Below, piece by piece: positions 33,029 to 49,681 of a DNA stretch of 49,681 nt. The stretch's first letter is position 1; every line of letters begins with the position of its first letter. A model generated the notes under the pieces. It was not told where the DNA came from. It did not search any database and saw nothing but the letters and a program-made list of their open reading frames with translations. The translations under genes were made by a program, and so were the position numbers. Source of the DNA: an uncultured Chitinophaga sp. (GTDB taxonomy: Bacteria; Bacteroidota; Bacteroidia; 2-12-FULL-35-15); NCBI GenBank assembly GCA_964456225.1, contig CAYWAV010000006.1:5030-54710 (forward strand), given 5' to 3'.

Positions 33029-33046
33029 ACTCTATTTTTCAATTTG

Positions 33047-33076
33047 CAGTTGGCAATTAAACAGTTGGCAATTGCC
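33047..33076. repeat. CAGTTGGCAA short-repeat cluster
   Basis: CAGTTGGCAATT x2; related cluster at 36911-36942. Confidence 0.7.
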
Positions 33077-36902: not shown

Positions 36903-36972
36903 TTTAAATTCAATTGGCAGTAGGCAATTTTTCAGTTGGCAAGCCAGCTTTTTGCGATACTGTTTTTATTTT

Positions 36973-37851: not shown

Positions 37852-39195
37852 TTACGCTCCTTGCAATTGATTTACACTATAATAATGTTTAACGTCTTTA
37901 ATTTTTTCCGGATGATTGATATATTCTTCGAACTCCGCACGGAAGTGGCGAATAGCGCTTGCCACAGGCCATGCAGCTGCATCACCTAATGGACAAATTG
38001 TATTCCCTTCAATTTTTCTTTGAATGTCCCAAAGCAAATCTATATCCGTTGGTTTTCCGTGACCTTCAATAATTCTGTGAAGAATTTTTTCCATCCAACC
38101 AGTTCCTTCACGACAAGGAGAACATTGTCCGCAACTTTCGTGATGATAAAAACGAGCAAAGGTGTAAAGGTTTTTTACGATACTGGTTGTTTCATCATAT
38201 ACAATGAATCCACCAGAACCAAGCATAGAGCCTGATACAAAACCTCCCTCACTTAATGATTCGTATGACATCAAACGAGGTTCACCTTTATCTGTTTTTA
38301 AGATTAAATCGGCTGGTAAAATGGGAACAGAAGAACCTCCTGCAACAACTGCTTTTAGTTTATTCCCGTTGATAATTCCACCGCAATATTCATCTGAATA
38401 AATAAATTCTTCAACCGGTAATCCCAATTCAATTTCGTAAACACCCGGTTTATTAATATGTCCGGATGCAGAAATTAATTTTGTTCCTGTGCTTCTTCCG
38501 ATTCCAATTTTTGCATACTCGTCTCCACCCATCATGATGATCGGACAAACAGCAGCAATTGTTTCAACGTTATTTACAACAGTGGGACAACCCCACACAC
38601 CAGCGATTGCCGGGAATGGTGGTTTGATACGCGGGTTTCCGCGTTTTCCTTCTAGTGATTCTAACAATGCTGTTTCTTCACCGCAGATGTATGCCCCTCC
38701 ACCAACTTGCACGTAGCAATCGTGAGAAAAATCTGATCCTAAAATATTTTTTCCTAATAATCCTGCAGCGTATGCTTCATCAAGCGCTTTCTCTAAAATC
38801 CTTGCAACATAAAAATATTCTCCGCGGATATAGATGTAAGACGTTTTTGCGCCTAATGCATAAGATGATGTAATCATTCCTTCGATCAATAAATGAGGAA
38901 TAACTTCCATTAAGTAACGGTCTTTAAATGTTCCCGGCTCCGATTCATCAGCATTACAAACCAAGTAGCGCTCAACACCTTCGGGTCGTGCAAGGAAACT
39001 CCATTTCATTCCTGTTGGGAAACCTGCACCACCACGACCTCTCAGTCCTGATTTTTTTACCTCTTCTAACACTTCAGGAGGAGTCATTGTTTTCAATGCT
39101 TTTTCTACTGATGCATACCCGCCATGTTGGCGATACACGTCAAGTGTTGCGATTCCTGGAACTTTATCGTTATGTATTAATAATTTTTTTCCCAT
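37852..39195 (-). CDS. nuoF: NADH-quinone oxidoreductase subunit F
   Basis: GLRGRGGAGF, NADESEPG, GAYICGEETAL, CGQCSPC; ATG 39195 (upstream MGVRS lies in a hairpin). Confidence 0.98.
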   Translation of the reverse strand: MGKKLLIHNDKVPGIATLDVYRQHGGYASVEKALKTMTPPEVLEEVKKSGLRGRGGAGFPTGMKWSFLARPEGVERYLVCNADESEPGTFKDRYLMEVIPHLLIEGMITSSYALGAKTSYIYIRGEYFYVARILEKALDEAYAAGLLGKNILGSDFSHDCYVQVGGGAYICGEETALLESLEGKRGNPRIKPPFPAIAGVWGCPTVVNNVETIAAVCPIIMMGGDEYAKIGIGRSTGTKLISASGHINKPGVYEIELGLPVEEFIYSDEYCGGIINGNKLKAVVAGGSSVPILPADLILKTDKGEPRLMSYESLSEGGFVSGSMLGSGGFIVYDETTSIVKNLYTFARFYHHESCGQCSPCREGTGWMEKILHRIIEGHGKPTDIDLLWDIQRKIEGNTICPLGDAAAWPVASAIRHFRAEFEEYINHPEKIKDVKHYYSVNQLQGA

Positions 39196-39332
39196 AGACC
39201 TCACCCCCATCCCCTCTCCTTCGGAGAGGGGGGAGGATTTCGTTTTAGTTTATGTTTTTTGTTTTAATCAAAATATTTTTACAACCTCACCCCAGCCCTC
39301 TCCTTGAACAAGGAGAGGGGGATGATTTCGTT
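39196..39332. repeat. Two tandem CCCTCTCC/GGAGAGGG hairpins
   Basis: ACCTCACCCC(C)A.CCC(C)TCTCC-loop-GGAGAGGGGG..GATTTCGTTTTA x2. Confidence 0.88.
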
Positions 39333-39873: not shown

Positions 39874-39925
39874 TTACAACCTCACCCCCAGCCCCTCTCC
39901 GAAGGAGAGGGGAGAGGCTTCGATT
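39874..39925. repeat. CCCTCTCC/GGAGAGGG hairpin
   Basis: TTACAACCTCACCCCCAGCCCCTCTCC-GAA-GGAGAGGGG; preceded on the minus strand by miniORF MKQVN. Confidence 0.88.
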
Positions 39926-39966: not shown

Positions 39967-41238
39967 CTATGCATCTAGTTCTCCTGCAATTACATTCATG
40001 CTGCTCATTGTTAAAATTGCATCTGATAAGAATCCGCCTTTAATCATTTCCGCGTATGCTTGATAATAAATAAAACACGGTCTGCGCATGTGCAAACGGT
40101 ATGGTGTTCTTCCGCCATCGCTAATTAAGTAATAGCCAACTTCTCCGTTACCGCCTTCAACTGCATGGTATACTTCGCCTTTCGGAATTTCTGTTTCGCC
40201 CATCACAATTTTAAAGTGATAGATTAAAGCTTCCATGTTGTTATAAACTTCTTCTTTTGGAGGAAGGAAAAATTCAGGAACATCGGCATGAAAAATTCCT
40301 TCTGGCTCTTTTTTAATTTTTGCAATTGCCTGGTGAATAATTTTTACGCTCTCCCACATTTCTTGTTGACGCACCATAAAACGATCGTAAGTATCACCTT
40401 GTGTTCCCACAGGAATAATAAAATCGAATTCTTCGTATGAGCAATATGGATTCATTACACGCACATCGTAATCAACACCTGCTGCACGCAAATTCGGACC
40501 AGAGAAACTATAGTTCAACGCACGCTCTGCTGATATTGGTCCGCAGTTAATGGTACGATCCATAAAAATTCTATTTCTCATTAAAAGATTTTCAAATTCT
40601 TTTAATGCAGGAGGGAAATCAATTAAAAATTTATCTAACAAGTCCCAAGCTTTAGGAGTAAAGTCTCTTTCCAATCCACCAATGCGACCAATATTCGTAG
40701 TTAAGCGAGCTCCACACAATTCTTCATAAATATCATAAATACGTTCACGCATTTGGAAGATATATAAGAAACCTGTCATTGCACCTGTATCCACACCAAT
40801 AACACTATTACAAATTACGTGATCGGAAATACGCGCCAATTCCATAATGATTACACGCATGTATTGAACGCGTTTCGGAATTTCTACTCCTAATAATTTT
40901 TCAACGGTCATGTGCCATCCCATATTGTTAATTGGCGATGAACAATAATTTAAACGATCGGTGATTGGAGTAATTTGATAATATGGTCTGCGTTCTGCTA
41001 ATTTTTCGAATGCACGGTGAATATATCCAACAGTGGATTCAGAATCCATAATTATTTCGCCATCCATTTTTAACACGTTCTGAAAGATACCGTGTGTAGC
41101 GGGATGTGTAGGACCAAGGTTAAGAGTAGAGTATTCAGCCTCTCCCTGGCCCTCTCCCAAGGAGAGAGAGTGGTTACTCGTTTTTACTTTTTCAATTTTA
41201 TTTTTTGTACTCATTTTATAAGTCTTCTTTTTACGCAC
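39967..41238 (-). CDS. nuoD: NADH-quinone oxidoreductase subunit D, with repeat-derived N-terminus
   Basis: LNLGPTHPATHG, GYIHRAFEK, RLNY; start is GTG 41238 or ATG 41214. Confidence 0.97.
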   Translation of the reverse strand: MRKKKTYKMSTKNKIEKVKTSNHSLSLGEGQGEAEYSTLNLGPTHPATHGIFQNVLKMDGEIIMDSESTVGYIHRAFEKLAERRPYYQITPITDRLNYCSSPINNMGWHMTVEKLLGVEIPKRVQYMRVIIMELARISDHVICNSVIGVDTGAMTGFLYIFQMRERIYDIYEELCGARLTTNIGRIGGLERDFTPKAWDLLDKFLIDFPPALKEFENLLMRNRIFMDRTINCGPISAERALNYSFSGPNLRAAGVDYDVRVMNPYCSYEEFDFIIPVGTQGDTYDRFMVRQQEMWESVKIIHQAIAKIKKEPEGIFHADVPEFFLPPKEEVYNNMEALIYHFKIVMGETEIPKGEVYHAVEGGNGEVGYYLISDGGRTPYRLHMRRPCFIYYQAYAEMIKGGFLSDAILTMSSMNVIAGELDA

Positions 41239-41276
41239 AGCCTCCTTCCCTTTGGGAAGGTCGGGATGGGCTTTTA
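41137..41276 (-). repeat. Hairpin doublet whose second hairpin lies in frame within nuoD
   Basis: CCTTCCC-TTT-GGGAAGG at 41244-41260; CCCTCTCC-CAA-GGAGAGAG at 41150-41168 encodes part of SLSLGEGQGEA. Confidence 0.85.
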
Positions 41277-41777
41277 TCGGCCAAACATTTTATCATCTTT
41301 ATCTTCACGCGTTCCATCTTCCAATGCGTATTCTTTTCTCATTGGGTGATACGTCATTTCATCCATATTCAAAATGCGTTTTAAGTTTGGGTGGCCTCTG
41401 AAAATAATTCCGAAGAAATCAAACTCTTGTCGCTCCATCCAATTAGCAGCAGAAAACACAGATGTGATAGAAGGAACATTGACATCGCTGCTGCTAAAAA
41501 ATATTTTTATTCTGATTCTTAAATTTTTTGAAAGGTTATGCAGTTGATACATCACAGCAAATTCTTGTCCTGCATTTTCGGGATAATGAATGGTTGCCAT
41601 CGTAGTTAAATATTGAAAAGCAAGTTCTTCATCTTTGTAAAGAAAATCGACTACCTCACAAATCAAATCTCTTTTTACAACAAATTCAGGATAATCCACA
41701 TTCATTGTGGAAGAGATAAATCCGTCTCCGAATTGTGCTTTTAATTTGCTTTCAACTGCTGTTAATAATGCTTCCAT
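41274..41777 (-). CDS. nuoC: NADH-quinone oxidoreductase subunit C
   Basis: AANWMERQEFDFFGI.F.GHPNLKRIL, HPMRKEY; ATG 41777. Confidence 0.96.
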   Translation of the reverse strand: MEALLTAVESKLKAQFGDGFISSTMNVDYPEFVVKRDLICEVVDFLYKDEELAFQYLTTMATIHYPENAGQEFAVMYQLHNLSKNLRIRIKIFFSSSDVNVPSITSVFSAANWMERQEFDFFGIIFRGHPNLKRILNMDEMTYHPMRKEYALEDGTREDKDDKMFGR

Positions 41778-41914
41778 AGACCTCACCCCTAGCCCCTCTC
41801 CGAAGGAGAGGGGGAGGATTTCGTTTTAGTTATATGCTTTTTTTTCTAATCTCAATTTGTAATTCTTTTTTTCTACCATCTGCTCCTTCCCTTTGGGAAG
41901 GGCGGGATGGGCTT
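41778..41914 (-). repeat. Inverted hairpin doublet enclosing miniORF MVEKKNYKLRLEKKAYN (41879-41826)
   Basis: 41883-41917 nearly identical to 41242-41276; 41774-41831 nearly identical to 39192-39250. Confidence 0.88.
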
Positions 41915-42475
41915 TTATTCCATTCCGTAACTATTCAACAATGCTTTGTATTCAGGAGAATCTCTTCTTCTGATTGATTCTGATTCCACTAGTTTTTGAA
42001 TCTGTAAAATACCGTCCAATACTTGCTCAGGACGTGGAGGACAACCAGGAATGTAAACATCTACTGGAATAACCCTGTCGATTCCTTGAAGAACACTGTA
42101 TGTATCAAAAATTCCACCGCTAGAAGCACAGGCGCCCATTGATAAAACCCATTTAGGTTCTGCCATTTGTTCGTAGACTTGTTTTAATACCGGAGCCATT
42201 TTTTTAGAGATAGTTCCCATTACCATTAATAAATCAGCTTGACGAGGAGAGAAGCTTAAACGCTCCGCTCCGAAACGACCTAAATCGTAAGTAGATGCCA
42301 TGGTTGCCATAAACTCGATTCCACAACAAGATGTTGCAAAAGGCAAAGGCCACAATGAATTTGCGCGAGCCATCCCAACTACCTTATCAATGCGTGTAGC
42401 AAAAAAACCTGGCCCTTCAATTCCGGCAGGAGCATCTGCATCTAAATTTACCTTTGATTTTTCTTTTGTACTCAT
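41915..42475 (-). CDS. nuoB: NADH-quinone oxidoreductase subunit B
   Basis: SCCGIE, SPRQAD, GACASSGG, PGCPPRPE. Confidence 0.98.
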   Translation of the reverse strand: MSTKEKSKVNLDADAPAGIEGPGFFATRIDKVVGMARANSLWPLPFATSCCGIEFMATMASTYDLGRFGAERLSFSPRQADLLMVMGTISKKMAPVLKQVYEQMAEPKWVLSMGACASSGGIFDTYSVLQGIDRVIPVDVYIPGCPPRPEQVLDGILQIQKLVESESIRRRDSPEYKALLNSYGME

Positions 42476-42509: not shown

Positions 42510-42914
42510 TTAATTTAAAATTAAAGTAATTACCATTTCTGGAACTTCCTTTGCTGATTTCCCACTTTGAACCAGTTGCACTCCACTTATCAACAATTTA
42601 TCTCCTAATTTTTTATCTGTATGCAATTGTTCTATCGCTGTCATTGCGCCCTTTCCAAACTGATTAGTTTTTGAAGGATATTCATCAAACAAAAAATCTT
42701 TTTTCACAACTCTCTTAACTGTAAGAACAAATGAACTAACAGAAGTATTTTTATCTAGAGGTGTTAATTCTTTTTTACAAGCATAAAACTCTTCCCATGT
42801 CATGGTGCAATCGCCTGTTTTTCCACCAAATGAAAAAGCTGGTTTCGCACCTTGTACAAAAGACAAGGATGTTGCAACTAAAACAATGAACGCTATTCTA
42901 ATTATAATTCTCAT
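42510..42914 (-). CDS. Exported protein resembling a stand-alone GldM/PorM C-terminal domain, inserted in the nuo operon
   Basis: Signal peptide from ATG 42914; FGGKTG...VSSFVLTV...NQF...IEQL...GDKLLISGVQ...MVITL. Confidence 0.65.
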   Translation of the reverse strand: MRIIIRIAFIVLVATSLSFVQGAKPAFSFGGKTGDCTMTWEEFYACKKELTPLDKNTSVSSFVLTVKRVVKKDFLFDEYPSKTNQFGKGAMTAIEQLHTDKKLGDKLLISGVQLVQSGKSAKEVPEMVITLILN

Positions 42915-42917
42915 ATC

Positions 42918-42950
42918 AATCCCCCTAACCCCCTTTTCAAAGGGGGAATT
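42918..42950. repeat. C/G-rich hairpin repeat
   Basis: Near-identical to 31043-31076. Confidence 0.85.
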
Positions 42951-42952
42951 AA

Positions 42953-43330
42953 TTACTCCCACTTTAATGCTCCCTTTTTCAAGATGTAATAAAACCCAAC
43001 CAATAAAAAGCCCACAAACGTTAACATCTCCACAAATCCAACCAATCCTAATTCTTTAAAATTTACTGCCCATGGATACATGAAGATCACCTCCACATCA
43101 AACAATACAAACAAAATTGCGACTAGAAAATATTTGATGGAAAAAGGTAAACGTGCATTCCCCTGAACTTCTATTCCACACTCAAATGTTTCAGATTTAA
43201 TTTTTGATTTCTTTTTTGGTCCAAGCTGATGCGTAAGAAAAAGCATAAATAAAACGAAGCCGAGAGCAACAATAAACATTAGTGCGATAGGAACAAAATC
43301 AGCGGGAGTACTTTGGACTGCTAACAACAT
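42953..43330 (-). CDS. nuoA: NADH-quinone oxidoreductase subunit A
   Basis: FECG, YFLVAILFVLFDVE, KGALKWE. Confidence 0.97.
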   Translation of the reverse strand: MLLAVQSTPADFVPIALMFIVALGFVLFMLFLTHQLGPKKKSKIKSETFECGIEVQGNARLPFSIKYFLVAILFVLFDVEVIFMYPWAVNFKELGLVGFVEMLTFVGFLLVGFYYILKKGALKWE

Positions 43331-43516: not shown

Positions 43517-43774
43517 TCAATAATGAAACTTACAGGAAATAACAATAATAGCTTCTGGCGTAACCTGATAAACTAATCGGTGCTCTTTGTTAATTCTGCG
43601 ACTCCAACATCCTTTTAATTGGTGCTTTAATGGCTCAGGCTTGCCAATACCATTAAATGGACTCGTTTGAGTGGCTTGTAAAAGGTCAATGATTTTGTTA
43701 TAGATTTTTTTGTCCGCTTTTTCCCAACCGTTAAATTGAACTTGTGCGGTAGTCGTAAATAAAAACTTCCTCAT
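43517..43774 (-). CDS. yoeB: Txe/YoeB family toxin
   Basis: PFNGIGKPEPLKH, WSRRINKEHRLVY, C-terminal FHY. Confidence 0.95.
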   Translation of the reverse strand: MRKFLFTTTAQVQFNGWEKADKKIYNKIIDLLQATQTSPFNGIGKPEPLKHQLKGCWSRRINKEHRLVYQVTPEAIIVISCKFHY

Positions 43775-44004
43775 TTCAACTTCGCAAGCTTTATTTCTTT
43801 TACGTTTCCTACTTTGGCTTCTGCCATTGACTTTTCTAGAGATTTAATATTTGCTTCAGTACTTAAAAGATACGATGTTTCGTCTTCGTCACCAGCTGGG
43901 TGAATAAGAATTTCAAGCTCTTTGTCATTTTTAAAAAGCTTTTTAATTGTTTTTAAAAAATCTGCGTTGAGTTCCGATACTTTTATGCGAAATACTGTTT
44001 CCAT
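43771..44004 (-). CDS. Antitoxin with YefM/Axe-like C-terminus
   Basis: ETSYLLSTEAN...LEKSM; ATGA overlap with the toxin; TATCTTTG promoter box at 44027-44034. Confidence 0.85.
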   Translation of the reverse strand: METVFRIKVSELNADFLKTIKKLFKNDKELEILIHPAGDEDETSYLLSTEANIKSLEKSMAEAKVGNVKEIKLAKLK

Positions 44005-44549: not shown

Positions 44550-47500
44550 TTAATACACAATGATCTTTTTCACTACATCTTGTTTGTCGTTTGTTAATGT
44601 AATTGTGTAGACGCCTTTACCGTATTCCACAACGCTAAATGGTTTTCTATATGCACCTGAGTAGTTTTTTAATTCTTCTTTATAAATCAACTGACCTAAG
44701 GCGTTTGTTAATTCCAATGTATAGGTTCCTTTATCTAAAACATTGAATGAAACATTAAAGTTTCCATCATTTGGATTTGGATAGATGCTCAAAAAATAAG
44801 GGTTGCTGACATCTTCAATTCCAACATTAGAAATAACTTCCGGAGCCGATTCGGCAGATGAACAAGAACCTGTTGTTACAACTACTGTATACGTTCCGTT
44901 TACAGTGAATGTATAGTTCTGGTTGGTTTCACCCGCAATTAATACTCCATTTAAATACCATTGATTTCCGGTAGCAGAACTGGATGTTAATGTTGTTCCG
45001 GATACAGAAATTGTTGGTGTTGCAGGAGTTGGATTTACAACCATTGTGATTCCTGTGCTAGTTCCTGTTAAAGGACTAGCACATGTTGCATTGGATGTAA
45101 CGATACATGTTACCACGTCTCCGTTTGCAAGTGCTGAGGTTGAATATGTTGTTCCTCCTGTTCCAACATTGCTTCCATTTACTTGCCACTGATAGGTTGG
45201 TGTTGTTCCACCGTTTGTTGGTGTTGCAGTAAACATTACTGAATCACCTGAACAAATTGCACCACTTGGAATTGCAGCAACACCTACAGCAGGGGTAACC
45301 ATTGGATTTACAGTCATTGTTATTCCACTTGATGTTGCCGTTGTTGTTGATGGACATATTGCATTGGATGTCATAATACAAGTTACAATATCTCCATTTA
45401 CAAGAGTTGTACTTGTATAAGTTGTTCCACCTGTTCCAACATTACTTCCATTCACTTGCCATTGATAGGTTGGAGTTGTTCCACCGTTTGTTGGACTTGC
45501 CGTAAATGCTACGGATGTTCCAACACAAATTGCTCCTGACGGACTTGCAGCGACACTTACAGAAGGAACAACAACAGGGTTAACTGTCATTGTAATTGCG
45601 TTGGATGTTGCTGTAGTTGGACTAGCGCAAGTGGAGCTAGATGTTAAAATACATGTTACAATTTGTCCGTTTGTTAAAGTACTACTTGTATAAGTTGTTC
45701 CACCTGTTCCAACGTTGCTTCCGTTCACTTGCCATTGATAAGTTGGTGTAGTTCCACCTCCACCTGAACTAGCAGTAAATGTTACAGATGTTCCTGCGCA
45801 AATTGCTCCTGAAGGACTAGCAACTATAGCATTTGTTGGTACAACACTAGAACTAACGGCAACTATTGTTGTTCCGGCAACACTTGTACAACCTGCAACG
45901 GTAACTGTTACACTGTATGTTCCAGCCATAACTGCTGTAGCAGAAGGACGAGAAGGATCTTCCAAAGTAGATGTAAATGCACTTGGTCCCGTCCAGCTAT
46001 ATGTTGCACCAGCAACAGTGTTAGACGTTAACAAAATTGTTGAGCCCAAACATACGGGAGAATTGCTTCCTGCTGTTGGTGATGCAGGAATTGGATTTAC
46101 CACAATGGTAACTGTTCCTGCTAAACTTGTACAACCACCAACTGTTACGGTTAATGAATATGTTCCACCCATTGCAGTTGTAACACTTGTTAATGCTGGA
46201 GGATTACGAACTCCTGCTGCATAACTATTTGGTCCGGTCCAACTATAAGTTGCACCTGTTACTGTTGGCGTTGTTAAAGTAATGGTTCCACCAGCACAAA
46301 TTGCGGCAGGGGCTGTACTTCCATTAGCACTAGGAACGGGAGTTGCGGGCAAGGCGTTTACAACAACCGTTGTTGTTGCCATTGTACTTGTGCAACCTCC
46401 TACGGTTACCGTCAAGCTATATGTTCCTGCCATTGCAAGTGTTGCAGATGGGCGCGTTGGGTCTTCTAAAGAAGAAGTAAATGCTGCAGGTCCTGTCCAA
46501 GAATAAGTTGCACCGGCAATTGTATTTGATGTTAAACTGATTGTTGAGCCAACACAATCAGGAGAACTACTTCCAACGGTTGGTGTTGCAGGAGCCGTGT
46601 TTACAACAACGGTTGTTGTTGCTACTGCACTTGTACAACCACCAACGGTTACCGTTAAACTATATGTTCCTGCCATAACTGCTGTAGCGGATGGACGAGT
46701 TGGGTCTTCTAAAGCAGAAGTAAATGCACTCGGGCCGGTCCAGCTGTATGTTGCTCCGGCAACAGTGTTTGATGTCAATAAAATTGTTGAACCAACACAA
46801 ACCGGAGAATTACTTCCTGCGGTTGGAGTTGCAGGGGCTGCGTTTACAACAACTGTTGTTGTTGCTATTGCACTTGTACAACCACCAACGGTTACTGTTA
46901 AGCTATACGTTCCTGCCATAACTGCTGTAGCGGATGGACGAGTTGGATCTTCCAAAGCTGAAGTAAACGCACCTGGACCGGTCCAGCTATAAGTTGCTCC
47001 AGCAACGGTGTTTGATGTCAATAAAATTGTAGAACCAGCACACACAGGAGAATTGCTTCCAGCTGTTGGGGTTGCTGGAGCGGTGTTTACAACAACCGTT
47101 GTAGTTGCTATTGCACTTGTACAGCCACCAACGGTTACTGTTAAACTATACGTTCCTGCCATACCTGCTGTGGCGGATGGACGAGTTGGATCTTCCAAAG
47201 CAGAAGTAAACGCACTCGGTCCTGTCCAGCTGTATGTTGCTCCCGCAACGGTATTCGATGTCAATAAAATTGTTGAACCAACACAAACCGGAGAGTTGCT
47301 TCCAGCTGTTGGGGTTGCTGGCGCTGTGTTTACAACAACCGTTGTTGTTGCGATTGCGCTTGTACAGCCACCAACGGTTACTGTTAAACTATACGTTCCC
47401 GCCATACCAGCTGTAGCAGATGGACGTGTTGGATCTTCCAAAGCAGAAGTAAATGCACTCGGGCCGGTCCAGCTATATGTTGCCCCGGCAACGGTGTTTG

Positions 47501-49681
47501 ATGTCAATAATATAGTTGACCCAACACAAACCGGAGAGTTACTTCCTGCAGTTGGAGTTGATGGTAAGGCGTTTACCACAACAGATGTTGTTGCAACTAA
47601 ACTTGTACATCCACCAACGGTAACCGTTAAACTATAGGTTCCTGCCATTGCAAGAGTAGTTGCCGGACGAGTTGGATCTTCTAAAGCAGAAGTAAAAGCA
47701 CTTGGACCGGTCCAGCTATAAGTTGCACCCGCAACAGTGTTTGATGTTAAATTGATGGTTGCGCCAACACAAACCGGAGAGTTGCTTCCTGCTGTAGGAG
47801 TTGACGGGATTGCATTCACTGTCATTGTAATTGCATTGGATGTTGCCGGGCTTCCTATTACTCCACCAAGACTTGAAGTCATAATACAAGTAACAATATT
47901 CCCGTTTGCCAAAGTTGTTGAAGTAAATGTTGATGAAGTTGCACCACCCACGTTCACTCCATTGATTTGCCATTGGTATGTTGGAGTTGCACCGCCATTT
48001 GTAGGAGTTGCTGTAAATGTTGCAGAAGCTCCGGCACACATTGGATTTGTTCCTGTGGTTTGAGCAATTACAACACTTGCAACAGGAGCTCCTGTTCCAG
48101 TTATATTTATATTGTCGAGGTACATCATTTGTCCCCATCCTGATCTGTTTTGGAATTTCACCATTACGTTTGCCATACCAGCATATGGAGTCATGCTTAC
48201 TGTTTCTGTTCTCCATTGTGCTGCAGTAGGAACAAACACGGTTGTGGCATTATCAGGAGCTGTTTGAAGTCCTGTAAATCCGCCTCTATTATACACTGCT
48301 GTCCATGTAGTACCACAATCAGTACTCACAAAAACTCTTAATGAATCTGTGTATACAGCGCTGTATCTGCAATAGGCAACATCAAACGTCATTGTTGCCG
48401 TAGAAACTCCAGTAAAATTATATTTCGGAGTTACCATTTCATCAATATATCCAGCAGTGGATGTTGCAGGAGTTAAATTGTCCATTGCAGCACATTGTGT
48501 ACTTGTTCCAAATCCGCCACAGGCAGTAGTTTGCGCCCAGGTAAAATCAGCATCCGGATTTATCAATTGCCAGCCCGGAGGAATAAATGTTGCCTGAAAT
48601 CCTTCGACCAGAGGCAATGCGATTGGAGAAGAAACGGTTATATAAGCCGTTTTTGTTTCCGTATCACTTCCGTTTGCGTTAGTAGAAATCAACGTAACAG
48701 TATATGTTCCTGCTGTGTTATAACAAATGTTTGTAGGGTTTTGAGTTGTGGATGTTCCAGGAGTTCCCCCAGTGAATGTCCAGGCCCATGAAGTTGGTGT
48801 TCCCGTTGATAAATCTGTAAAGTTGATACAATCACCCACACAAATATTTGTTCTGTTGGCTGTAAAATCCGCTACAGGAGGAGATGTTCCCGGTGATGCT
48901 AAATCCGATTGCCAAATACTACGACCATAAGTTGCGGCTCTAAGTTTTGCAGCTGTGTATTGAATTTCTAATTCTCTTACAGACACATTTGGTAAGCCTG
49001 TATTGTAAGCAGCCCAAGAACCAGCTGTATTGTCGCGATAATAAACGCCAACATCCGTTCCAACATAAAGCGGATCGTTTATTGAACTTCCTTGATAAAC
49101 TATACAGTTTGCTGGCAAATTTGGTAAGCCTGTTGTATAATTACTCCATGTTACTCCTGCATCGGCTGAATACCAAACTTTGTTTGCAGCAGAATATCCT
49201 GAGAAAGTAACCCACACTCTGTTTGCATTTAATGGATCAACAGCAATGTATGTAATGGCTGCAGAAGCTGTAGGAAGTCCTGCTGTTCTATCAACAAAAG
49301 CCGCACCAGTAGTACAAACGTAAAATCTATTTATTTTTGCTGCATAAATATAATTGATATTTGAAGCTGCATTTGCGAGTGCAATTACATTTCCTGTTCC
49401 ACCAGAAATTGTTCCCACCTGCGCCCATGTTGCTCCGCTATTGGTACTTCTGAAAACTTGAGCTTTACCAACAAATAAAGTGGCTGCATTACTTGGTGCT
49501 TCTATGTATGGAGTTACCCAATCGCCATCTGCATCTACACCTGTTCCACCACTTGCAACAATTCCTGTTGTATAATTTCCTCCAGTTGTGGTTTTTCTAA
49601 TGTCACCATAATACAACTCTCCGTATTGAACATTCGCATTCGACCAATCAATAATACACTCCATTCCGTCTCCACCCAAAG
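44550..49681 (-). CDS. Large T9SS-secreted surface protein (BNR/sortilin-like propeller, PKD, MAM/cleaved-adhesin-like domain, Ig-like repeats, type A CTD); 5' end beyond right edge
   Basis: Asp-boxes STNSGATW, SADAGVTW; AATYGRSIW; PKD FTDLSTG.PTSWAWTF; IYPNPNDG...NALGQ...GVY...KKIIVY. Confidence 0.93.
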   Translation of the reverse strand, partial: LGGDGMECIIDWSNANVQYGELYYGDIRKTTTGGNYTTGIVASGGTGVDADGDWVTPYIEAPSNAATLFVGKAQVFRSTNSGATWAQVGTISGGTGNVIALANAASNINYIYAAKINRFYVCTTGAAFVDRTAGLPTASAAITYIAVDPLNANRVWVTFSGYSAANKVWYSADAGVTWSNYTTGLPNLPANCIVYQGSSINDPLYVGTDVGVYYRDNTAGSWAAYNTGLPNVSVRELEIQYTAAKLRAATYGRSIWQSDLASPGTSPPVADFTANRTNICVGDCINFTDLSTGTPTSWAWTFTGGTPGTSTTQNPTNICYNTAGTYTVTLISTNANGSDTETKTAYITVSSPIALPLVEGFQATFIPPGWQLINPDADFTWAQTTACGGFGTSTQCAAMDNLTPATSTAGYIDEMVTPKYNFTGVSTATMTFDVAYCRYSAVYTDSLRVFVSTDCGTTWTAVYNRGGFTGLQTAPDNATTVFVPTAAQWRTETVSMTPYAGMANVMVKFQNRSGWGQMMYLDNINITGTGAPVASVVIAQTTGTNPMCAGASATFTATPTNGGATPTYQWQINGVNVGGATSSTFTSTTLANGNIVTCIMTSSLGGVIGSPATSNAITMTVNAIPSTPTAGSNSPVCVGATINLTSNTVAGATYSWTGPSAFTSALEDPTRPATTLAMAGTYSLTVTVGGCTSLVATTSVVVNALPSTPTAGSNSPVCVGSTILLTSNTVAGATYSWTGPSAFTSALEDPTRPSATAGMAGTYSLTVTVGGCTSAIATTTVVVNTAPATPTAGSNSPVCVGSTILLTSNTVAGATYSWTGPSAFTSALEDPTRPSATAGMAGTYSLTVTVGGCTSAIATTTVVVNTAPATPTAGSNSPVCAGSTILLTSNTVAGATYSWTGPGAFTSALEDPTRPSATAVMAGTYSLTVTVGGCTSAIATTTVVVNAAPATPTAGSNSPVCVGSTILLTSNTVAGATYSWTGPSAFTSALEDPTRPSATAVMAGTYSLTVTVGGCTSAVATTTVVVNTAPATPTVGSSSPDCVGSTISLTSNTIAGATYSWTGPAAFTSSLEDPTRPSATLAMAGTYSLTVTVGGCTSTMATTTVVVNALPATPVPSANGSTAPAAICAGGTITLTTPTVTGATYSWTGPNSYAAGVRNPPALTSVTTAMGGTYSLTVTVGGCTSLAGTVTIVVNPIPASPTAGSNSPVCLGSTILLTSNTVAGATYSWTGPSAFTSTLEDPSRPSATAVMAGTYSVTVTVAGCTSVAGTTIVAVSSSVVPTNAIVASPSGAICAGTSVTFTASSGGGGTTPTYQWQVNGSNVGTGGTTYTSSTLTNGQIVTCILTSSSTCASPTTATSNAITMTVNPVVVPSVSVAASPSGAICVGTSVAFTASPTNGGTTPTYQWQVNGSNVGTGGTTYTSTTLVNGDIVTCIMTSNAICPSTTTATSSGITMTVNPMVTPAVGVAAIPSGAICSGDSVMFTATPTNGGTTPTYQWQVNGSNVGTGGTTYSTSALANGDVVTCIVTSNATCASPLTGTSTGITMVVNPTPATPTISVSGTTLTSSSATGNQWYLNGVLIAGETNQNYTFTVNGTYTVVVTTGSCSSAESAPEVISNVGIEDVSNPYFLSIYPNPNDGNFNVSFNVLDKGTYTLELTNALGQLIYKEELKNYSGAYRKPFSVVEYGKGVYTITLTNDKQDVVKKIIVY
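45850..47810 (-). repeat. Eight tandem ~81-aa (243-bp) Ig-like coding repeats, the 7th divergent
   Basis: TPTAGSNSPVC.GSTILLTSNTVAGATYSWTGP...GTYSLTVTVGGCTS; flanked by one plus three repeats of a second class (PTYQWQ.NG). Confidence 0.93.

Follow-up and report, generated by a model that had tools for sequence, protein, structure and literature searches.

A probable remnant of a small DUF559-bearing element in the NuoD leader of an uncultured Chitinophaga

The nuo operon and its two repeat-bearing junctions

The stretch of DNA analysed here, which we call the window, comprises 49,681 nucleotides (nt) of contig CAYWAV010000006.1 from an uncultured Chitinophaga sp. Its source genome, G000, is a metagenome-assembled genome (MAG) of 4.1 Mb in 254 contigs, and all genomes compared with it are also MAGs. 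The window carries a nuo operon on the minus strand, in which NuoB, NuoC, NuoD and NuoE are confirmed by Pfam, NuoD as Complex1_49kDa with an E-value of 6.1e-106. Our subject is the junction between nuoC and nuoD, where a hairpin-forming repeat lies in frame in the nuoD leader, and the relation of this repeat to small genes for DUF559 nucleases. The hairpins at this junction and at the preceding nuoB/C junction are labelled H1 and H2 in their order of reading. The features of the two junctions are as follows.

41917-41915, minus strand: nuoB stop codon, at the nuoB/C junction
41775..41916, minus strand: nuoB/C insertion of 142 nt, made up of H1, a mini open reading frame (mini-ORF) and H2; absent in the relative G020
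41912-41885, minus strand: nuoB/C H1, a hairpin
41879-41826, minus strand: nuoB/C mini-ORF, MVEKKNYKLRLEKKAYN followed by a stop, 17 codons
41821-41775, minus strand: nuoB/C H2, whose last three bases are the nuoC ATG (41777-41775)
41274..41276, minus strand: nuoC stop codon (TAA), at the nuoC/D junction
41244..41271, minus strand: H1-type triplex-motif repeat in the nuoC/nuoD spacer, G-rich tail first ('left-end' orientation)
41236..41238, minus strand: in-frame GTG, a possible, non-conserved alternative nuoD start; G020 has a stop in the corresponding stretch
39967..41214, minus strand: nuoD coding sequence, 415 amino acids (aa) from the conserved ATG, Pfam Complex1_49kDa
41179..41202, minus strand: eight codons, NKIEKVKT, read from a sequence match as a putative relic of the DUF559 C-terminal helix
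41132..41175, minus strand: in-frame H2-type repeat in the nuoD leader (nhmmer E 9.6e-7, 30.1 bits)
41168-41161, 41160-41158 and 41157-41150, minus strand: pyrimidine stem, loop TTG and purine stem of the nuoD H2
41149-41147 and 41146-41139, minus strand: spacer and mirror G/A block of the nuoD H2

Read on the minus strand, the nuoB/C junction follows the order given in the initial annotation, with a hairpin, a mini-ORF and its stop codon, a second hairpin and the nuoC ATG. The nuoC/D junction opens with a like hairpin, as was also described: over 36 nt, its H1 shares 97% identity with its nuoB/C counterpart and with a further copy located on another contig (C52). The string TAAAAACGA is present here as well, with its TAA shifted out of frame by a single A that the nuoB/C copy lacks. 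An A-rich stretch separates the nuoD ATG (41214) from the diverged H2. This H2 contains no stop codon, and its in-frame translation, SNHSLSLGEGQGEA, leads directly into the conserved NuoD core motif EYSTLNLGPTHP. From the end of the repeat to this motif there is no in-frame ATG or GTG, in agreement with the initial annotation, and no TTG either; what had been overlooked is one in-frame TTG inside the hairpin loop (41160-41158). With the repeat in frame and no start codon after it, NuoD most likely has to translate it. The RNA fold of the leader has a predicted energy of -25.4 kcal/mol (z -3.5 versus shuffles).

The nuoD ATG and the MS.KNKIEK leader are kept in G020, G002, G018 and G014. In the NuoD tree, G000 and G020 are sisters (support 100/99), and G020 has a stop codon 5 codons upstream of the ATG. 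Its nuoD also holds a canonical copy of the repeat (E 2.7e-12), at the same place and in the same frame, with TTA as the loop codon; the TTG of G000 is therefore not a conserved start. H1 is absent from the nuoC/D junction of G020, and the nuoB/C junction of that genome reads TAATGG, with no spacer. H1 and the nuoB/C insertion are therefore recent additions in G000. The initial annotation had treated hairpin, mini-ORF and hairpin as a repeated cassette, a view that does not hold: G020 keeps the in-frame nuoD repeat yet lacks both additions, and blastn elsewhere in the genome recovers only hairpin units of ~35-45 nt.

Contigs from independent metagenome runs were used only to confirm the arrangement. 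One contig (run X4, record 17) is identical to G000 over 40700-41763, and in a variant contig (run X9, record 24) 6 letters are added at 41133-41138. Length differences in the nuoD leader thus come in multiples of three, with -3 nt relative to G020 and +6 nt in the X9 contig.

The first 12 nt of nuoD (41203-41214, minus strand) and of nuoB (42464-42475, minus strand) are the same, ATGAGTACAAAA. This identity, pointed out in the initial annotation, is real, and we have no explanation for it.

A dispersed family of triplex-type repeats

A repeat profile was built from 45 strict matches, all of them copies other than the one in nuoD, and was used with nhmmer. At E ≤ 0.01, it finds 99 non-overlapping copies in the 4.1-Mb genome, including the nuoD copy, whose E-value of 9.6e-7 against a profile of other copies shows that it is not a chance match. 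In each unit of ~45 nt, a pyrimidine stem and a complementary purine stem enclose a loop; a short spacer then leads to a G-rich block mirroring the purine stem. Purine-motif triplex pairing rules are obeyed by 94 of the 99 copies (57 with 9-nt blocks), compared with none of 99 shuffled copies. The nuoD copy obeys them with 8-nt blocks, one G·T pair in the hairpin and a third block without mismatch. A family-independent scan of G000 found 134 triplex motifs, versus 0 in a block-shuffled genome. The layout suggests that the repeat may form a triplex.

Further copies lie next to the downstream genes of the operon.

39874..39920, minus strand: H2 repeat just upstream of the nuoE start (nhmmer E 5.2e-9), with a perfect 9-nt triplex layout
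39279-39328 and 39194-39239, minus strand: two H2 repeats between nuoE and nuoF (nhmmer E 8.5e-7 and 1.2e-8), with the triplex layout

Many solo copies share an inner flank, CG[GA]AGC, ~10 nt 5' of the hairpin. Among 201 genomes sampled from the class, 57 contain an exact match to the H2 pattern (one of the 57 being the unpublished G218), and so do 36 of 121 genera. A reversed control pattern gave 0 matches across the sampled genomes. No Rfam family matches the repeat. A plant microRNA model from Rfam scored 25.8 bits across two adjacent repeats, against a gathering score of 135, and was dismissed as a hairpin artefact. We also considered the repeat tail (…GAGGTCTATG) as a donor of start codons or ribosome sites and rejected this role as a general rule, as an ORF starts within 25 nt on the tail side of 16 of the 99 copies and on the other side of 13.

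The initial annotation drew an analogy to the Rickettsia palindromic elements (RPEs) and proposed a search for other in-gene insertions. In G000, at least 21 of the 99 copies lie in frame in Pfam-verified genes, comprising 18 solo copies, the nuoD copy and 2 flanks of a DUF559 gene in MetH. The 18 solo copies fall into 16 long ORFs, and all 16 have Pfam families.

Families of the 16 ORFs: M20 peptidase, UvrA, D-Ala-D-Ala ligase, PriA, class II aminoacyl-tRNA synthetase
Families of the 16 ORFs, continued: iPGM, ValRS, LeuRS (two copies), Mur ligase, carboxyltransferase, GAF (two copies)
Families of the 16 ORFs, concluded: radical SAM, M61 peptidase, RsmE-type methyltransferase, AnmK, sugar dehydratase

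By inspection, five of the six reading frames of the repeat unit are open. Together with the in-frame copies in 16 Pfam ORFs, this means that a situation of the Rickettsia type applies, and the analogy is apt.

A second triplex-type subfamily, with the pyrimidine stem TCCCCCTT, has a copy in the window (42925-42965, minus strand) and 15-19 others in G000. One copy of this type gives a spurious N-terminal extension (..SPFEKGVRGI..) to a 150-aa ORF that lies between nuoA and nuoB (42510-42962, minus strand) and has a signal-peptide-like start.

The repeats as inverted ends of DUF559 nuclease genes

In this genus, small DUF559 nuclease genes (Vsr-like, PD-(D/E)XK) are terminated on both sides by the repeats in inverted orientation, a link that the initial annotation overlooked, along with the relic of a nuclease C-terminus that the NuoD leader appears to hold. 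G000 has five DUF559 (PF04480) genes, scoring 94-131 bits, and each of them lies between two hairpins in inverted orientation whose G-rich blocks face outward. A strict triplex motif lies within 300 nt of four of the five. Across 32 loci of the genus, an outward-tailed triplex motif was found within 170 nt on the right side of 24 of 32 and on the left side of 17 of 31, against a background of 13 in 3000 random windows. The left and right ends of one element share stem and loop variants. DUF559 is present in 32 of the 41 genomes of the genus.

REP elements are short hairpin repeats that flank RAYT (Y1) transposase genes and are thought to be spread by them. The present repeats resemble them in that short hairpins flank a small enzyme gene, but the flanked gene is DUF559. 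RAYT/Y1 transposase was rejected as the partner enzyme, since none of the four Y1_Tnp genes of G000 has a triplex-type repeat within 300 nt.

Many of the nuclease genes reside inside other genes. Of the 65 full-length DUF559 matches in the 41 genomes, 27 (26 of 64 when the unpublished G055 is excluded) are situated in an open frame of 300 aa or more; free-standing copies are also present. Three of the five genes in G000 are inserted in frame in the essential enzymes IleRS, MetH and Acs, where they split the Pfam domains of the host and are joined to it by linkers that the repeats encode.

L113:1-3012: IleRS with a complete in-frame DUF559
L111:1-2349: MetH with a complete in-frame DUF559
L114:583-2928: Acs with a complete in-frame DUF559

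An intein was considered for these inserts and rejected. No intein family matches IleRS, MetH or Acs at E ≤ 0.001, and Pfam finds there only host domains, DUF559 and a weak, related nuclease model, without a Hint or splicing domain. The residue that follows the insert is F, D or Y, as opposed to the Cys, Ser or Thr of an intein C-extein junction. The mobility of the element may be driven by the nuclease.

The association with DUF559 also bears on the nuo junctions. The DUF559 elements of IleRS and Acs have left ends of the same type as H1 at nuoC/D. The nuoB/C insertion could be aligned with the nuoD leader and with the right end of the MetH DUF559 gene, and the G-rich tails of both its ends point outward, like those of full DUF559 elements. 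It is short and carries terminal inverted repeats like those of a full element, and we read it as a probable internally deleted DUF559 element, resembling a miniature inverted-repeat transposable element. The comparison of G000 with G020 revealed no target-site duplication at nuoB/C.

Full, solo and empty states of shared insertion sites

Comparison across species shows that the same site can be full, solo or empty. For IleRS, 30 loci were compared: 24 are empty (one of them in the unpublished G055), 2 are full, 2 carry a solo repeat, 1 is footprint-like and 1 has a broken frame. The full elements, in G000 and G050, replace 12 nt of host DNA, and there is no target-site duplication at this site. 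G042 and G001 have a solo right-end repeat that adds 11 and 12 aa. G021 has the length of an empty site with four changed residues, whose DNA resembles the last bases of the repeat, and the frame is broken in G015. At the MetH site, an element is present in 8 genomes (7 if the unpublished G055 is set aside), and at the Acs site in 4. At the LeuRS site, G024, G016 and G006 have full elements and G000 has a solo repeat. Solo in-frame repeats can therefore be remnants of full elements, and the distribution over the sites is homing-like.

Two further arrangements were observed. MetH of G042, G049, G007 and G044 (L146, L148, L149 and L154) carries, besides the DUF559 insert, a second solo in-frame repeat ~30 residues upstream. 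In G017 (C184:13588-15267), two DUF559 matches lie in one open frame of 1516 aa, and the host gene may have been invaded twice.

Origin of the NuoD leader

Most species of the genus have a short NuoD leader of the type MSKEKNTNTDIIEKEY. In G000 and G020, the leader is ~12 aa longer and contains the repeat in frame. Several other species have a 29-aa leader, M..KNKIEK.K, in which the next 13 residues are variable and partly repeat-like. The C-termini of DUF559 proteins in the genus read ..VIEKIK[TS]E and are followed by the repeat. The leader of G020 reads IEKIKTE, identical at 7 of 7 positions to this C-terminus, with the same frame continuing into the repeat. Among the 8.2 million six-frame residues of G000, N[KV]IEK[IV]KT is found only twice, once in the NuoD leader and once at the C-terminal end of the nuclease in MetH. 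Given this match of NKIEKVKT and the rarity of the pattern, we read the NuoD leader as a decayed right end.

To compare the leader more widely, we turned to public NuoD proteins that match residues 1-60 and examined the best 120 of 6730. Repeat-type peptides of different subtypes occur in nine distinct leaders of this set. Eight of the nine peptides end 4-6 residues before LNLGP, and one ends 12 before. Nine different leaders of this kind imply that the 5' end of nuoD has been hit repeatedly. The initial annotation would have been contradicted by conservation of the repeat peptide in relatives that lack the palindrome; in the alignment of NuoD N-termini, the peptide is not conserved in such relatives, and this objection therefore falls away.

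Structural comparison places the insert in a variable tail. Matches to solved NuoD, Nqo4 and 49-kDa subunits start at residue 20-30, and in E. coli NuoCD the stretch corresponding to the leader is the linker between the C and D parts. In an AlphaFold model of NuoD, residues 1-25 have a predicted local distance difference test score (pLDDT) below 50, and the first strand begins at residue 29.

Taken together, we consider it likely that the NuoD leader is the decayed right end of a DUF559 element, tolerated outside the conserved fold and translated from the ATG at 41214. DUF559 elements would enter fixed sites of conserved genes in frame, without intein or intron, and would later decay from the full element to a single right-end repeat and then to a footprint. 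In NuoD, MSTK would be the host-derived start, NKIEKVKT the last helix of the nuclease and SNHSLSLGEGQGEA the right-end repeat, with the host protein resuming at EYSTLNLGP. Translation from the conserved ATG through the repeat would then give a floppy tail outside the NuoD fold. In this way, the first 26 residues of NuoD appear to have been built from the leftover end of a small selfish element.

Several points weigh against this reading. The DUF559 profile found a full nuclease gene with nuoD in none of 110 nuoC/D loci, and the best 120 of the 6730 public proteins contain no full DUF559, with PF00346 alone and a longest protein of 431 aa; the parent state is therefore inferred. The long leader is patchy on the NuoD tree, which calls for several insertions, several losses or recombination at the 5' end. 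The flanks of leader and repeat are A-rich, which inflates apparent DNA similarity. The NuoD start codon is a prediction from the sequence, and an in-frame TTG lies in the G000 hairpin loop. The NuoD model is of modest quality (mean pLDDT 62.9) and was used for the disordered tail alone, and the suggested part of the nuclease in mobility is based on association. The repeat profile does not recognise the small hairpins that occur in the long leaders of G002, G018, G014 and G008, which may be decayed copies or unrelated.

A different history would be that a solo triplex-type repeat entered a pre-existing long nuoD leader alone, with NKIEKVKT as a travelling flank or a chance resemblance. The CG[GA]AGC inner flank of many solo copies, which indicates a unit extending past the hairpin, would fit this, as would the failure to see a full element in nuoD (in the 110 loci and the best 120 of 6730 proteins) and the spread of the 29-aa leader even without a canonical repeat. 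Nevertheless, the eight-residue pattern is confined to two places in the genome and is missing from the flanks of the other 97 copies, and the solo right-end repeats of IleRS and LeuRS sit at the exact sites of full elements in other species, so that we regard entry of the repeat alone as unlikely. We also weighed recruitment of the nuoD hairpin, either as an mRNA or DNA structure that tunes nuo expression (through stability, nuoC/nuoD coupling or pausing) or as a peptide tail of complex I, which corresponds to the exaptation proposed in the initial annotation. A well-formed hairpin with its mirror block is present in both G000 and G020, repeats stand directly before the starts of nuoC, nuoE and nuoF, the leader fold is more stable than shuffles (z -3.5), and small, possibly unrelated hairpins occupy this position in other species with a long leader. 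Against this, published tests of the E. coli motif discussed below (PMC4666352) revealed no promoter, terminator or regulatory role. In addition, the repeats have no orientation bias to gene starts (16 versus 13 of 99), no Rfam family matches, the leader peptide is not conserved, with its segment decayed in other species, and the next closest relatives after G020 (G011, G009 and G021) have a short leader and tight junctions. A gained function is thus improbable, and the repeat in the leader is presumably without one.

The remaining alternatives concern the start codon and the assembly. Bacteroidota generally lack strong Shine-Dalgarno signals, and starts are hence hard to call. This blurring and the in-frame TTG in the loop (41160) would allow translation to start inside or after the repeat, leaving the hairpin as a 5' leader and not as protein. 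We consider such a start very improbable, given the TTA in the loop of G020, the conservation of the upstream ATG and leader peptide across species, and indels that preserve the frame; moreover, the purine stem and the mirror block would remain part of the protein even if translation began at the loop TTG. As for a repeat misjoined into a MAG contig, the assembly consists of 254 contigs, and the repeat draws many foreign contigs, with a depth spike at 41750-41833. However, an independent run contains the identical contig over 40700-41763, a diverged strain contig spans the repeat in another, and G020 and many public NuoD proteins have the same arrangement, which makes an artefact hardly credible. 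Our preferred reading remains that of a decayed right end of a full element; origin from such an element and translation through the repeat are both suggested by these comparisons.

Comparison with known systems

To place these elements, we compared them with published ones. RPEs (Ogata et al. 2000, 2002, as summarised in PMC10969869) are dispersed palindromic repeats that lie in frame in unrelated housekeeping genes and are translated as extra segments. The present family is similar as a dispersed hairpin repeat in frame in protein-coding genes. It differs in length (~45 nt, compared with ~100-150 bp for RPEs in PMC10969869), in phylum and in its three-block, triplex-type layout. Furthermore, its repeats are the ends of nuclease genes, whereas the passages on RPEs in PMC10969869 name no enzyme for them.

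The BoxC/PIT/TMECO repeats (Holder et al. 2015, PMC4666352) consist of a C-rich stem, a G-rich stem and a second G-rich block, each of 9 nt, with a loop of 3-6 nt between the two stems and one of 3 nt before the last block. The architecture is the same as here, and in both cases the repeats are dispersed, G/C-rich in an A/T-rich context and sometimes arranged as inverted pairs (PMC4666352). For TMECO, triplex formation in vitro has been studied by CD/NMR (PMC4666352). The published TMECO pattern, CCCTCNCCC N3-6 GGGNGAGGG N3 GGGNGAGGG, gave 0 matches on both strands of G000, because the blocks are in another register. For E. coli MG1655, PMC4666352 reports that TMECO occurs exclusively between genes and has no association with mobile elements. 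Here, in contrast, one fifth of the copies lie in genes, and the repeats cap DUF559 genes.

A link to DUF559 may exist in E. coli as well. In K-12 MG1655, the DUF559 gene ycjD is followed at a distance of ~170 nt by a strict TMECO, a match that none of 200 shuffles produced. The region downstream of ycjD also contains a degenerate hairpin over its stop codon and a duplicated relic of its own 3' end (L191:7206-7440). This layout is the same as that of the proposed relics in the window. The origin of BoxC/PIT/TMECO repeats has been open since the 1990s.

With respect to homing endonucleases, I-Bth0305I is an EDxHD, Vsr-like enzyme (PMC3239194); PMC3424549 places DUF559 together with Vsr, and PMC9403480 assigns it to the EDxHD family. 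The likeness lies in the predicted Vsr-fold nuclease (PF04480) and in a site that is filled in some genomes and empty in others. Known members (PMC3239194) reside in group I introns or inteins or are free-standing, whereas the in-gene DUF559 described here is in frame with its host, has no splicing element and has repeat-capped ends. The ShiLan insertion in a phage methylase is in-frame and homing-like, leaves the host frame open and is neither intein nor intron (PMC11855218). The DUF559 elements share these properties: a homing-like distribution, an open host frame and the lack of an intein or intron. In ShiLan, however, the nuclease is of the HNH type, is out of frame and occurs in phages, and the abstract of PMC11855218 describes no terminal repeats.

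In the literature on Bacteroidetes in-frame palindromic elements, DUF559, TMECO/BoxC/PIT and intein-free in-frame homing, we found no description of repeat-capped DUF559 elements or of DUF559 elements resident in frame in essential genes. The nearest printed concepts are RPEs, the Vsr-like EDxHD homing endonucleases (PMC3239194) and the ShiLan insertion (PMC11855218). A quite possible, though tentative, generalization is that repeats of the BoxC/PIT/TMECO kind are the terminal inverted repeats and relics of an undescribed mobile class, in which a DUF559 gene homes into fixed sites of essential genes, in frame and without splicing. The G/C-rich ends would serve as Gly/Pro/Ser linkers for tolerance by the host, and the NuoD N-terminus and the ycjD TMECO would be remnants.

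These findings would mean that a strictly conserved respiratory subunit can gain coding sequence, and possibly start-codon context, from selfish DNA, here outside Rickettsia and in a free-living phylum. They tie BoxC/PIT/TMECO-like repeats to a candidate enzyme, DUF559, which makes their origin and spread directly testable. They also point to a route into essential genes that needs only frame-neutral, linker-encoding ends and neither intron nor intein. For annotation, such insertions displace predicted start codons, give rise to spurious small ORFs and make proteins appear too long in Bacteroidia MAGs.

Other features of the window and of related junctions

The nuo junctions in the genus are porous. 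A small ORF other than the 150-aa one is inserted at nuoB/C in G021, and in several relatives a small ORF follows nuoD. Short repeats of the type CAGTTGGCAA occur in the window at 33038-33071 and 36909-36942, and also in the nuoC/D spacers of G020 and G012. Repeats of the type TTTTGACTT fill the nuoC/D spacer in G002, G023, G001, G004, G003 and G024.

A pair of small, overlapping ORFs (43517-44004, minus strand; 77 and 85 aa) looks toxin-antitoxin-like, judged by eye only. One motif in these ORFs, ..KEHRLVYQV.., is one that we take to be typical of YoeB/Txe-type toxins. At 45000-48050, tandem repeats of 243 nt (7-8 copies) and 273 nt (3-4 copies), 62-81% identical, probably encode a surface protein with repeated domains.

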